Positions 29,051 to 31,853 of a stretch of 64,000 bases of DNA are shown one piece after another (within the stretch, counting starts at the first letter, position 1; each line of letters opens with the position of its first letter). The stretch lies in assembly GCF_041248615.1 (NCBI RefSeq), contig NZ_CP158426.1, one strand, 5' to 3'. The stretch comes from Escherichia coli (GTDB lineage: Bacteria; Pseudomonadota; Gammaproteobacteria; Enterobacterales; Enterobacteriaceae). The notes below the pieces were generated by a model that was not told the origin of the DNA, searched no databases, and saw nothing but the letters and a program-made list of their open reading frames with translations. A program made the translations under genes and the position numbers.

Positions 29051-29115
29051 TAAAAATACTCCCTTTTGAGTGGTTAAAGTACTGAGATAATGTGGGGAGG
29101 ATTTGAGAGATAAAC

Positions 29116-29346
29116 GTTGGTTTGGGGGAAGGCTCTGCATTGCCTGTTGGTGTACCGGTTCCATGGCCCACCGCCACACCGCCAGCAGGCTGGTTACAGT
29201 GCAACGGAGCTACGTTCACCAAAGAACAATATCCTGTTCTGGCCAGAGTCTACCCGACCCTCCGTCTTCCCGATTTGCGCGGTGAGTTTATCCGTGGATG
29301 GGACGACGGGCGCAAGATTGACGAGGGGCGTAAGTTGCTTTCATGG
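29116..29346. repeat. Left inverted repeat of invertible tail-fibre segment (includes gix-like crossover site near 29113-29138)
   Basis: About 230 bp, roughly 88% identical by eye to the reverse complement of 30511-30736. Confidence 0.75.
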
Positions 29347-29595
29347 CAGAAAGGTACACTGGTCGGCGGTCATGACGATAACGATTCTGCGCTTGATATC
29401 TCGTACATGAGTAACGGAAATAATATTGACTATGGCGGCGATAAGGTGTTTGCGGGGAATTACCGTAGCGATTATTTGTGGTACGCAATTCTGGGTGGAA
29501 CAAACAGTCGCGCAAAAGCCGAATTAAACGGAGCATTCTTTAACATAACCCGCCCCCGCAATATCGCGTTTAACTATATCGTGAGGGCGGCGTGA
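29122..29595 (+). CDS. Alternative tail-fibre variable segment lacking its own start (expressed only after inversion)
   Basis: Begins GEGSALPVGVPVPWPTATPPAGWL as in the resident fibre, ends RPRNIAFNYIVRAA; ORF-track start is a TTG; in-frame stop 6 codons upstream. Confidence 0.65.
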   Translation: MGEGSALPVGVPVPWPTATPPAGWLQCNGATFTKEQYPVLARVYPTLRLPDLRGEFIRGWDDGRKIDEGRKLLSWQKGTLVGGHDDNDSALDISYMSNGNNIDYGGDKVFAGNYRSDYLWYAILGGTNSRAKAELNGAFFNITRPRNIAFNYIVRAA

Positions 29596-29601
29596 TACCG
29601 T

Positions 29602-30216
29602 TCAACTGGCAAGTGCCAGTGGCGCTTCCGGCCAGCTGATTTCAGGTGCCGTGCTGATATCCAGTGCGTTCAGCTCGTCGATATAATCCAGCACGGCGTT
29701 CAGTTTTGCCGTTTCTTCTGGTGTCAGACTGCGACCAGCACGCAGTTTGAGGTTGATAAGATCGACGGACGCCATCGCCTGTTTCACCCGTTGCTGGCGT
29801 TGCTGTCTGGCAACCTCCAGTTCTGCGGCTCGCTGCCGTTCAGTATCGGTTACCCACGCCTCACCGTTCCAGGTATCCCATGGCGTGGCTGGCTGTTTTG
29901 TGGTGGTGTCCGCCGGGTAATCACCCGGTTGGGTAATCAGAACGGGGTTACCGTTCTCCGTGCTGTATACCGTCTCGCCGCGGTGATCAGGCACATGCTC
30001 CCACCCGTTCAGCGTGGCAGTCCGGCAAACCACGTAACCCGAAATTGCCTCCGGCGGTGCATCGGCGCACGAATGTGCCGGAGTACCCACCCCAAGGGCG
30101 AGATACTCCACAGAGGATGAGGTGTATTCCCGGGTTTCCTCGTCATAGTGATATACAGTGATATCGCCCGCTACAGTGGCGATACCGTTTTCATCCAGAA
30201 CTGCAGTGTTACTCAT
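29602..30216 (-). CDS. Tail fibre assembly chaperone (Mu U / Tfa-like)
   Basis: 204 aa immediately downstream of the tail fibre gene; Tfa-like by position and sequence character. Confidence 0.8.
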   Translation of the reverse strand: MSNTAVLDENGIATVAGDITVYHYDEETREYTSSSVEYLALGVGTPAHSCADAPPEAISGYVVCRTATLNGWEHVPDHRGETVYSTENGNPVLITQPGDYPADTTTKQPATPWDTWNGEAWVTDTERQRAAELEVARQQRQQRVKQAMASVDLINLKLRAGRSLTPEETAKLNAVLDYIDELNALDISTAPEISWPEAPLALAS

Positions 30217-31853
30217 TAAACTGCCCTCACAATGTAATTAAGTGCAATGCTACGGGGTCTGACAGTGATACCCTTCGCATACCCGCTTCTGATAGAGGTC
30301 AGAATAGTAGCCTGCATACCATTGTCTGACATTGCCACGACAGGATCGCTGAATGTTGTCCCGTCCGGCATTTTAAAGCTGCCCTCACGAAGGTCTGTAA
30401 TGGAATCTTCATTGTTGAATCCCATGCCGACTATCCCCGAGGTTCCCGTAGTGTCCTGGTTATAATAATCCAGCATTGCTGTTCTTAACAGCGTTGCCCC
30501 TTGTGCGGACAGCAACTTACGTCCTGTATCAACTTTGCGCCCGTCGTCCCATCCACGGATAAACTCACCGCGTAAATCGGGAAGACGGAGGGTCGGGTAG
30601 GCTCTGGCCAGAACAGGATATTGTTCTTTTGTAAAGGCGCGCCCGTCGCACTTTAACCAGCCTGCTGGCGGTGTGGCGGTGGGCCACGGAACAGGCACAC
30701 CAACGGGTAGCGCCGAGCCTTCTCCTAAACCAAGGTAATTGAGGACATCTTTTATACTGCCCTTAGCGATAATAGCGCGACCAATAGCTGTAAGGGTTGC
30801 CAGCGCTGCGCGGTCTGCTCCGGTAAAATAAGGCAACCGATCTGCTGCAGTGGCAAGTCCTGCCAGAGCAGTGAGCGTGGCATCTGCCGGTTGTTTTCCG
30901 TTTGCCAGATCGTATGCAGCCTTGACCGCTTTCGGTGTGGCGGCCAGTATTTCAGACGTGCTGTTGATGGCACTGCTCAATTGTACGGTGCCTTTTGCCG
31001 TCAGCGAGGCAGCAGGCACTCCCGTTATCTGACTCCACGGGTGAGTGTGGCTGACGGGCGCCTTGCCGGCTGCAAGGTCGTATGCAGCCTTGACGGCCTT
31101 TGGTGTGGCGGCCAGCGTTTCAGACGTGCTGTTGATGGCACTGCTCAATTGTACGGTGCCTTTTGCCGTCAGCGAGGCAGCAGGCACTCCCGTTATCTGA
31201 CTCCACGGGTGAGTGTGGCTGACGGGCGCCTTGCCGGCTGCAAGGTCGTATGCAGCCTTGACGGCCTTTGGTGTGGCGGCCAGCGTTTCAGACGTGCTGT
31301 TGATGGCACTGCTCAGTTGTACGATCCCTTTACGGGTCGTTGTTGCATCCTGGGCTGTGTATTTTCCCCGGGCCAGATCATACGCGATTTTCACAGCCTT
31401 CGGCGTGGCAGCCTCAGTTTCTGATTGACTGTCCGTGGCACTGCTCAGCTGTACGGTGCCTTTTGCCGTCAGTGAAGCCGCAGGCACTCCCGTTATCTGA
31501 CTCCACGGGTGAGTGTGGCTGGCAGGCGCCTTGCCGGCTGCCAGGTCGTATGCAGCCTTGACCGCTTTTGGTGTGGCGGCCAGCGTTTCAGAGGTGCTGT
31601 TGGTGGCACTGCTCAGTTGGGTGAACCCCTTAGCTGTCAGTGTCGCGTCCGGGTGGTTACGGGAACGTACGTGTTCAGCCAGTGACTGTGCGGCTTCCTC
31701 CGTTTTCTTCTTCAGCCATTTCGTCCTGTTTGCCAGTTGCCGGGGGGCTCGATTTGATATCCCGTCTGCACCACCCAGAACCGGATCTGATGTCTCCAGT
31801 TGATAGATATTTTCTTCCCACTTTTCTGTTTCATTCAGGTTTCCCATAATCAA
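30216..31853 (-). CDS. Tail fibre protein (Mu S-like) with 56-aa tandem repeats and variable C-terminus inside the invertible segment
   Basis: 545 aa; repeated ...TAKGTVQLSSAINSTSETLAATPKAVKAAYDLAAGKAPVSHTHPWSQITGVPAASL... blocks; C-terminal RPRSIALNYIVRAV. Confidence 0.9.
   Translation of the reverse strand: MIMGNLNETEKWEENIYQLETSDPVLGGADGISNRAPRQLANRTKWLKKKTEEAAQSLAEHVRSRNHPDATLTAKGFTQLSSATNSTSETLAATPKAVKAAYDLAAGKAPASHTHPWSQITGVPAASLTAKGTVQLSSATDSQSETEAATPKAVKIAYDLARGKYTAQDATTTRKGIVQLSSAINSTSETLAATPKAVKAAYDLAAGKAPVSHTHPWSQITGVPAASLTAKGTVQLSSAINSTSETLAATPKAVKAAYDLAAGKAPVSHTHPWSQITGVPAASLTAKGTVQLSSAINSTSEILAATPKAVKAAYDLANGKQPADATLTALAGLATAADRLPYFTGADRAALATLTAIGRAIIAKGSIKDVLNYLGLGEGSALPVGVPVPWPTATPPAGWLKCDGRAFTKEQYPVLARAYPTLRLPDLRGEFIRGWDDGRKVDTGRKLLSAQGATLLRTAMLDYYNQDTTGTSGIVGMGFNNEDSITDLREGSFKMPDGTTFSDPVVAMSDNGMQATILTSIRSGYAKGITVRPRSIALNYIVRAV
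30511..30736. repeat. Right inverted repeat of invertible tail-fibre segment
   Basis: Reverse complement matches 29116-29346; crossover-like core TTGGTTTAGGAGAAGG. Confidence 0.75.
30846..31640. repeat. Tandem 168 bp coding repeats (about 4.5 copies) inside tail fibre gene
   Basis: Period 168 bp measured between identical GGCACTCCCGTTATCTGACTCCACGGGTGAGTGTGGCTG blocks (31015 and 31183). Confidence 0.85.

Follow-up and report, generated by a model that had tools for sequence, protein, structure and literature searches.

A Probable Mu G-Type DNA Switch with a Single Tail-Fibre Chaperone Gene in an Escherichia coli Prophage

The exchange of tail-fibre tips by a DNA invertase has been known since Mu and P1 and is no novelty in itself; p15B Min is a multiple-inversion system with cassette shuffling. 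In the prophage "shufflon" of EPEC E2348/69, one invertase and three inverted repeats give four arrangements and three fibre C-termini, and these arrangements were shown by PCR and read mapping (Goldberg 2014, PMC4272514). In the EC958 prophage Phi2, PacBio contigs and reads revealed both orientations of the segment (Forde 2014, PLoS One, PMC4134206); the same paper presents such loci in general terms as mirror-image arrangements in which the "minor tail fibre" genes are cognate, and leaves the single chaperone gene (tfa) uncommented (PMC4134206). Here we analyse a 64,000-nucleotide stretch of Escherichia coli DNA (contig NZ_CP158426.1; herein referred to as the window) and hold, at a probability of roughly 0.85, that it contains a Mu G-segment-type DNA switch in a prophage, the flipping of which swaps the receptor-binding tip of the tail fibre. 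A switch in this prophage lineage is already published, namely that of EC958 Phi2; what our analysis adds locally to a preliminary description of this DNA is the precedent in the lineage, the family-wide single chaperone and a frameshifted invertase.

The prophage that carries the switch is a transposable, Mu/BcepMu-like element of ~37 kb and belongs to the same lineage as EC958 Phi2, with which it shares an identical invertase accession (WP_000904922.1, discussed below), tail protein I and both outer 26-bp sites, as well as a near-identical Tfa and, in Phi2, an imperfect inverted repeat of ~227 bp. Phi2 differs in having three cassettes (Sv1 and two tandem start-less ones) in 2,067 bp as opposed to two in ~1.6 kb, in having SvA and SvB instead of Sv' as its alternative cassettes and in having an intact invertase. 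Three-site relatives of the element can shuffle cassettes as p15B Min does, whereas the copy in the window is limited to simple inversion; the EPEC E2348/69 locus follows the same logic as the three-cassette relatives and is P2-like according to its authors (PMC4272514). With the Mu G segment, the locus shares the gene order gp47-gp48-S-U ... S'-gin at the right end of a transposable phage, a distance of 67 bp from site to invertase ATG, the inner half-site GGTTTnnnGGAA, a Gin-like invertase and the in-frame swap of fibre C-termini; Mu, however, has U and U', 34-bp repeats, a central TC, non-collar variable parts of ~1 kb and mom/com beyond gin, where the window has one tfa, 229-nt repeats, a central TT, collar cassettes of ~0.5 kb and the invertase as its last gene. 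The P1 C segment is similar in its Din-family invertase (72.7% identity to Cin) and in its long inverted repeats that encode a shared part of the fibre, and it differs in having two chaperone genes. The tips themselves resemble those of T4 gp37 and lambda Stf (a collar domain, a variable tip and a C-terminal NIAFNYIVRxA, with a Tfa of ~200 aa directly downstream that is interchangeable between tips; PMC9659904), but the T4 and lambda fibres are fixed single genes with no DNA switch, and the tips in the window fall well short of theirs in length and show no long His-rich needle.

The segment is framed by two inverted repeat arms of 229 nt (29114–29342 and 30508–30736), which are 86% complementary with a spacing of 1165 nt; the runner-up inverted repeat within 6 kb is only 29 nt at 76%, and the 229-nt repeat is thus far beyond chance. 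The left arm encodes the collar domain of Sv' (Pfam Collar PF07484, E 1.4e-15) and the right arm that of Sv1. The preliminary description had reported imperfect inverted repeats of about 230 bp with gix-like cores; the repeats are real, and the quoted cores are present as the inner halves of two 26-bp sites. The invertase-proximal site (29105–29130, plus strand) reads GAGAGATAAACG-TT-GGTTTGGGGGAA, with its central TT at 29117–29118, and the fibre-proximal site (30720–30745, minus strand) reads TCCTCAATTACC-TT-GGTTTAGGAGAA, with its central dinucleotide at 30732–30733 (AA on the plus strand). The two sites are inverted, have imperfect dyad half-sites and share the same central TT; they fit the published consensus and are identical, respectively, to "Phi2_3prime" and "Phi2_5prime" of EC958 (PMC4134206, Table 3). 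The 229-nt repeat would then be collar-coding sequence common to the cassettes, and its outer 26 bp the true recombination sites. There are only two sites in the window, as opposed to the three or more of a Min-like system (loosely, a "shufflon") in which cassettes are shuffled; the relatives KS21 and EC958 have three sites each, and two relatives (L003 and L005) lack 1 bp from the core of the invertase-proximal site.

Between the repeats lie the variable 3′ end of the fibre gene (Sv1), one tfa and the start-less cassette Sv'. The constant N-terminal part of the fibre, Sc (30734–31847, minus strand), is part of an annotated CDS with five matches to Pfam PF03406 (Phage_fiber_2) and direct repeats at a spacing of 168 nt (30904–31653). 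In the current assembly, Sc is continued by Sv1 (30216–30731, minus strand; 171 aa, with the Pfam Collar at fibre residues 385–432), and the Sc-Sv1 state of the window encodes a fibre of 545 aa. Sv' occupies 29119–29595 on the plus strand (158 aa from GLGEG); as had been noted from the sequence, the corresponding open reading frame (29122–29595) is a start-less alternative segment, its sole "start" being a TTG within the crossover site. When the segment is inverted in silico at the site cores, an Sc-Sv' fibre of 532 aa results in frame. We propose that the invertase, whose gene lies 67 bp beyond the segment, brings the two inverted 26-bp sites together, that strand exchange at the central TT would flip 1,615 bp (29118 to 30732) and that Sc (30734–31847) would thereby be joined in frame to either Sv1 or Sv'. 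The original reading of an invertible segment of the Mu G / P1 C kind is borne out by the in-frame inversion, the occurrence of both orientations among genomes and the Gin-like neighbour. Start-less cassettes of this kind are routinely labelled as "phage tail protein" genes, and alternative orientations may be mistaken for misassemblies, which gives the anatomy some value for annotation.

Both tips have the features of the gp37/Stf type (Collar PF07484, a variable insert and a C-terminal NxAFNYIVRxA strand). Sv' consists of a collar domain, a unique middle of ~70 aa and the C-terminal RPRNIAFNYIVRAA; it matches PHROG 523 "tail collar fiber protein" (3e-65) and the T4 gp37 tip 2XGF (E 9e-15, C-terminal motif included), and a comparison with known receptor-binding domains, suggested at the outset, thus returned a Collar in both tips and a gp37-like tip for Sv'. 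The N-terminal 75 aa and the extreme C-terminus that the two segments had been said to share are 68/75 identical and read RPRNIAFNYIVRAA in Sv' and RPRSIALNYIVRAV in Sv1, respectively. An alignment of 10 sequences shows tips with invariant ends and a hypervariable middle, and we picture a collar and a C-terminal strand RPRNIAFNYIVRA that would flank a hypervariable insert of ~55–90 aa. This insert should carry receptor specificity, through which inversion would be expected to change host range. An AlphaFold2 monomer model of Sv', built from the same number of aligned sequences (10), has a mean pLDDT of 46.6 and is confident only in the collar (about residues 11–55) and the last strand. A search of the unique region of Sv' against a large protein database returned only short E. 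coli and Salmonella fragments and no full-length fibres elsewhere, and NCBIfam gave no match for the tips or Tfa. Sv' as a decayed duplicate was rejected: it is intact, 103 genomes carry it joined in frame to Sc, and the family has five intact cassette types, of which it is one.

The invertase gene (28479–29050, minus strand), a Din-family (Gin/Cin/Pin-like) serine DNA invertase present as a split open reading frame, and its frameshift are absent from the preliminary description. A run of nine T is eight T here (A8 on the plus strand, 28737–28744), which breaks the frame; apart from this run, the gene matches the intact allele WP_000904922.1 (190 aa) at every position over 573 nt, and PGAP labels it "frameshifted". 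The product matches structures of Mu Gin (3UJ3/4M6F; E about 1e-93, residues 1–181) and PHROG 125 "DNA invertase" (1e-94) and is 84.6% identical to the P88 invertase, which places this small serine invertase adjoining the segment, 1-nt frameshift included, in the Din family. In Din systems, a recombinational enhancer lies inside the 5′ end of gin/hin. A candidate enhancer in the window (28967–29029, minus strand) comprises two Fis-type 15-mers at positions 22–36 and 71–85 of the invertase gene; these (GTGTCAACAAATGAC / GCGCAGGATGTGAAC) occupy the same positions as GTATCAACAAATGAC / GTGCAGGATGTGAAC in Mu gin, a likeness that coding constraint alone could explain. Fis would presumably bind this element at the 5′ end of the invertase's own gene.

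Both orientations occur in nature. The prophage family is found in about 11% of complete E. coli genomes; the Sc-Sv1 junction of the window is present in 326 complete E. coli genomes and the Sc-Sv' junction, contiguous and at 98–99.8% identity, in 103, so that Sv' is fused to Sc in about half of the 196 genomes that carry it. These counts, together with inversion of EC958 Phi2 in culture (PMC4134206), answer the call in the preliminary description for detection of both orientations. In two relatives, L002 and L003, the same prophage, with identical Tfa and tail protein I, occupies different insertion sites, carries the segment in the flipped orientation and has an intact invertase. In L003, the outer half-sites stay put and the inner half-sites and arms travel with the cassettes, which maps the exchange to the site core. 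That the orientations among genomes arose instead by RecA-dependent recombination between the 229-nt repeats is very improbable: the repeats are long enough, and the mosaic collar arms of L002 and L005 show homologous exchange or gene conversion between arms, but the exchange point in L003 falls within the first 7 bp of homology, at the core, the adjacent Gin-like invertase and the consensus 26-bp sites are strictly conserved, and relatives with short internal sites shuffle cassettes too; in EC958 culture, inversion was moreover of high frequency (PMC4134206). The mosaic arms do suggest that RecA-dependent recombination in the 229-nt repeat, or at least gene conversion, also occurs alongside site-specific inversion. 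The state of the switch in this particular genome is a separate matter, because the T9-to-T8 frameshift, private to this genome, reflects either a locked switch (a pseudogene) or a sequencing or assembly error. A frozen locus, with a dead invertase, lost switching and a silent Sv' heading to decay, would account for the frameshift, and the 1-bp core deletions of L003 and L005 suggest that locking mutations do arise. We nevertheless consider this doubtful, since the change is a single base in a 9-nt homopolymer of a gene that is otherwise 100% the intact allele, and the T8 allele occurs in only one of the 594 genomes that carry the gene, a pattern typical of an assembly error or of a change that happened very recently; the two sites and the two cassettes are also intact. 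With the local frame broken, flipping would need either that the frameshift is an assembly error or that a second Din-type invertase acts in trans; such a homologue is present on the chromosome, and Din invertases can act in trans (PMC4134206).

The one unusual feature of this switch is that two alternative tips, three in relatives, come with a single chaperone gene. The tfa gene (29602–30216, minus strand; 204 aa; PHROG 105 "tail fiber assembly", 3e-88) directly follows the resident fibre gene on the same strand, its start overlapping the Sv1 stop codon, and its stop codon lies 6 bp from that of Sv'. By tblastn, the whole 64 kb window holds one tfa, one invertase and two collar cassettes; the earlier claim of a single chaperone oriented with the resident fibre therefore stands, as does its contrast with the two chaperone genes of Mu, since Mu, P88, pro483 and Kp4850-2 have two tfa each. 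With one tfa, the locus lacks the mirror-image Sv-U / U'-Sv' architecture canonical for Mu G and P1 C, and Sv1 is the only tip with a Tfa gene directly downstream; Sv' has none. Across the family there are five types of cassette, of which a genome carries two or three, and all seven loci examined have one tfa. One tfa alongside two or three cassettes is thus a family-wide design and not a local loss; recent loss of a second tfa was rejected on account of the mere 6 bp between the stop codons of Sv' and tfa and of the single tfa in every relative.

The single Tfa can be read in two ways. There may be one tfa because all cassettes of the family belong to one tip class, with the ~200-aa Tfa class recognising the conserved part of the tip and not the variable part. 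Tfa of the window is about 60% identical over its full length to those of HK97, P2-T22, pro483 and Kp4850-2, which among themselves are 74–83% (N half) and 96–98% (C half) identical although the middles of their tips are unrelated, and this makes it plausible that one generic Tfa serves all cassettes; in the mirror-image systems Kp4850-2 and pro483, the second Tfa is of a different class and is paired with a non-collar tip. Because late promoters of the Mu type depend on an activator, a scan for tfa expression in the inverted state, which detected no sigma-70-like promoter in 28400–31000 on either strand, is uninformative. Once Sc is joined to Sv', tfa runs antisense to the late operon, and this, with no promoter found, leaves the idea of one generic Tfa without an expression route there. 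For Mu, North in 2019 reportedly placed tip binding in the N domain of Tfa, which is not conserved; this favours cognate over generic pairing. It is conceivable, if on balance unlikely, that Sv' and the further cassettes need no Tfa to fold and that tfa is private to Sv1, such that the switch alternates between chaperone-dependent and chaperone-independent tips. Such an arrangement would fit the attachment of tfa to Sv1, with start overlapping stop, in 7/7 family loci examined, the fact that two-cassette Sc-Sv' arrangements never have a same-strand tfa downstream and yet keep Sv' intact and fused in 103 genomes, and the C-terminus RPRSIALNYIVRAV of Sv1, which is slightly unlike that of all other cassettes. 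Against it, the related T4 gp37 tip requires gp38. Every collar-type tip examined in other phages also directly precedes this Tfa class, and a Tfa of 184–207 aa always follows such tips, with lambda Tfa able to substitute for T4 gp38 (PMC9659904).

We tentatively put forward, as a possibility on which we would not place even odds, that a serine-invertase switch with at least five interchangeable collar tips and only one Tfa, antisense in roughly half of the states, reflects either tips some of which fold Tfa-free or a generic Tfa supplied by an unrecognised route; the latter might be, for instance, a promoter of its own, supply from other prophages or mixed orientations during replication. If true, the family would be a natural matched set for defining the chaperone dependence of fibre tips, and either one Tfa for several tips or Tfa-free collar tips would bear on the engineering of phage and tailocin host range by tip swapping, for which the compact module of two cassettes and one tfa offers a direct test bed of chaperone economy. 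An open reading frame antisense to tfa (29791–30120, 109 aa, TTG start), weighed as a possible hidden chaperone, has the Arg/Cys-rich composition typical of antisense frames.

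The window lies on the chromosome of E. coli NRZ14408 (NZ_LT599825.1), where position 28400 corresponds to record position 4543945. The observation is confirmed: the segment is bounded by the long inverted repeat already noticed around the end of the tail-fibre gene, whose 229-nt arms (29114-29342 and 30508-30736) are 86% complementary; the second-best inverted repeat within the surrounding 6 kb is only 29 nt. Each arm carries at its outer edge a 26-bp site consisting of two 12-bp half-sites and the same central dinucleotide, the left, invertase-proximal site lying at 29105-29130 (GAGAGATAAACG-TT-GGTTTGGGGGAA) and the right, fibre-proximal site at 30720-30745 on the minus strand (TCCTCAATTACC-TT-GGTTTAGGAGAA). 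The segment holds the resident tip Sv1 (the last 171 codons of the fibre gene; 30216-30731, minus strand), the tail-fibre assembly chaperone gene tfa (204 codons; 29602-30216, minus strand), with a first codon that overlaps the stop of the fibre gene, and the start-less alternative tip Sv' (158 codons; 29119-29595, plus strand), which converges on tfa 6 bp from its stop and whose sole possible start codon is a TTG within the crossover site. A serine invertase gene of 190 codons (28479-29050, minus strand), absent from the preliminary description, flanks the segment at a distance of 67 bp from the left site, and tblastn against the whole window returned one invertase, one tfa and two collar cassettes. 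RefSeq calls Sv' (29122-29595) as a stand-alone 'phage tail protein' CDS starting at the crossover-site TTG (WP_032143395.1); this CDS is an annotation artefact, of a type against which the authors of the EC958 study warned (PMC4134206).

Cutting at both central dinucleotides in silico and flipping the intervening 1,615 bp joins the constant N-terminal fibre part (Sc) to Sv' in an uninterrupted gene of 532 codons. This predicted Sc-Sv' junction, queried as 950 nt across the hypothetical join, is found as one contiguous match (98-99.8% identity) in 103 of 5,426 complete E. coli genomes, and an equivalent query for the window-state junction matches 326; since the unique region of Sv' occurs in 196 genomes, about half of its carriers express it as the tip. 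The two inverted genomes inspected (loci L002 and L003) carry the same prophage, with identical Tfa and tail protein I accessions, at other chromosomal insertion sites, in the order invertase (intact), start-less Sv1, tfa and fused Sc-Sv' gene. In L003 the outer half-sites have not moved and the inner half-sites and repeat arms have travelled with their cassettes. The exchange thereby maps to the site core, inside the first 7 bp of homology, which is the hallmark of site-specific as opposed to homologous recombination.

Inversion has, indeed, already been shown in this lineage, and the feature belongs to a well-known kind. Forde et al. (2014, PMC4134206) give both 26-bp sequences, letter for letter, for Phi2, a prophage of E. 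coli EC958, in which they terminate an imperfect inverted repeat of 227 bp that encloses a 2,067-bp segment; PacBio reads assembled to alternative contigs, which carried the segment one way round or the other. The Phi2 locus and the window have identical invertase and tail protein I sequences and near-identical Tfa. The earlier interpretation as an invertible tail-fibre segment is supported by the in-frame inverted fibre, by the occurrence of both junctions among genomes and by published inversion in the lineage.

The arms themselves show further variation. In one mosaic arm (L002:2507-2740) Sv1 bears an Sv'-type collar (QCNGAT...ARV), and in another (L005:2219-2450, from a further E. coli genome) Sv' bears an Sv1-type collar (KCDGRT), which indicates that, besides inverting site-specifically, the arms undergo gene conversion or homologous exchange with each other. 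The invertase-proximal site has a 1-bp deletion in its central dinucleotide (GAGAGATAAACG-T-GGTTT) at L003:2493-2518 and L005:2205-2230, in unrelated genomes, one per orientation; this should alter half-site spacing and could lock the segment, or it may be an assembly artefact.

The host element is a transposable prophage of ~37 kb encoding a DDE transposase, an ExeA/MuB-like protein, Gam, Mor, a DUF935 portal, Mu F- and G-like head proteins and baseplate proteins V-W-J-I. It interrupts a YadA-like (trimeric autotransporter) gene, with the C-terminal half left on one side and the N-terminal half on the other (28024-28401, minus strand, in the window, and L016:15597-16409 beyond the window edge); the interrupted gene belongs in turn to a different prophage region, one that contains Lom and tail-fibre genes. 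Copies of the element elsewhere disrupt idi, gspL, yfaL and further genes, consistent with near-random transposition. As in Mu, the late genes end gp47-gp48-S-U ... S'-invertase, and in either element 67 bp separate the site from the invertase ATG. Transcription of the early genes (HTH regulators, DDE transposase, ExeA/MuB-like, Gam and Mor; L016:5197-14247) runs away from the late genes (28479-53000), whereas in Mu it runs towards them, a divergent layout that resembles that of BcepMu-type phages.

The invertase matches crystal structures of Mu Gin (E about 1e-93) and is 72.7% identical to P1 Cin and 84.6% to the P88 invertase. In systems of the Din family (Gin/Cin/Pin/Hin), the enhancer lies within the invertase gene; two Fis-like 15-mers occur here at the same codon positions as in gin, which is consistent with, and no proof of, a putative intragenic enhancer. 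At ≥99% identity the allele is found in 593 records, drawn from about 594 genomes; these make up 11% of the complete E. coli set. The window copy lacks one T of a T9 run (28737-28744, A8 on the plus strand), is otherwise 100% identical to the intact allele and is labelled frameshifted by PGAP. Among the 594 genomes with the gene this T8 form occurs in the window genome only; either a mutation has locked the switch very recently, or the homopolymer was misread in sequencing or assembly. The same chromosome carries a second Din-type homologue that could act on the segment in trans, as was inferred for EC958 prophage Phi4 (PMC4134206).

The Pfam Collar domain is present in Sv1 and Sv' alike, and Sv' matches the receptor-binding tip of T4 gp37 (PDB 2XGF, E 9e-15), including the final ...NIAFNYIVRLA. 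When the five cassette types of this prophage family were aligned with the tips of HK97, a P2-like phage, pro483, EtG and Kp4850-2, ~77 N-terminal and the last 13 residues were nearly invariant, and the 55-90 residues between could not be aligned. The ends that the preliminary description had found common to the two segments are these same residues, shared because they are the fixed framework of a single tip class, and the 229-nt repeat exists because collar-coding sequence is common to the cassettes; judged from the alignment, the variable middle would be the specificity insert. An AlphaFold monomer model is confident only for the collar and last strand.

Cassette sets differ among relatives: Sv1 and Sv' in the window, L002, L003 and L005; Sv3, Sv1 and Sv' in strain KS21; and Sv1, SvA and SvB in EC958 and an ST131 prophage record. 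The three-cassette relatives carry a third site (CGCATAAAAACG-TT-... in KS21, GGCATAGAAACG-TT-... in EC958), so cassettes can shuffle, and they resemble the three-repeat locus shown experimentally in EPEC (Goldberg et al. 2014, PMC4272514). In KS21 the tip being expressed is Sv3; start-less Sv1 and tfa come after it, in that order and on the same strand, an arrangement reachable only through successive inversions. SvA-SvB occurs in 205 genomes and Sv3, partly plasmid-borne, in 242; the Sv3 cassette sequence (L004:3840-4120, from KS21) is also present at 107 places on E. coli plasmids. It thus seems that fibre loci on plasmids, probably phage-plasmids, draw on the same cassette pool.

Mu, P88, pro483 and Kp4850-2 have two convergent tfa genes inside the segment, whereas the window has one, so the contrast originally drawn with Mu is correct. 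The one-chaperone layout is real and family-wide: a single tfa is joined to Sv1 in all seven family loci examined, whatever the cassette set, including the three-cassette loci of KS21 (L004:3317-5462) and EC958 Phi2 (L007:1252-3261). The layout can plausibly be rationalised. We favour, at a probability of about 0.5, one generic Tfa serving the tips. Across the ~200-aa Tfa proteins of HK97, P2-T22, pro483 and Kp4850-2, identity is 74-83% in the N half and 96-98% in the C half despite unrelated variable middles in the corresponding tips, hence one tfa may be enough; moreover, lambda Tfa can substitute for T4 gp38, so chaperones of this type are not tip-specific (PMC9659904). The second Tfa of the mirror-image systems is a distinct, shorter protein partnered with a non-collar tip, and chaperone gene number therefore appears, in these sequences, to follow tip classes rather than cassette number.

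In the Sc-Sv' state tfa is antisense to the late operon, and no promoter-like site able to drive it in that state was found. Sv' may need no Tfa at all, a reading that we regard as rather doubtful; a Tfa of 184-207 aa always lies directly downstream of such tips (PMC9659904). Possible alternatives are that an unrecognised promoter drives tfa in this state or that Tfa comes from other prophages.

Within the constant part of the fibre gene, direct repeats (30904-31653) lie at spacings of 168 and 300 nt; they are 83-92% identical and encode Phage_fiber_2 units. The annotations of EC958 and strain B36 break this part of the gene into fragments, suggesting deletion between repeats or faulty assembly.
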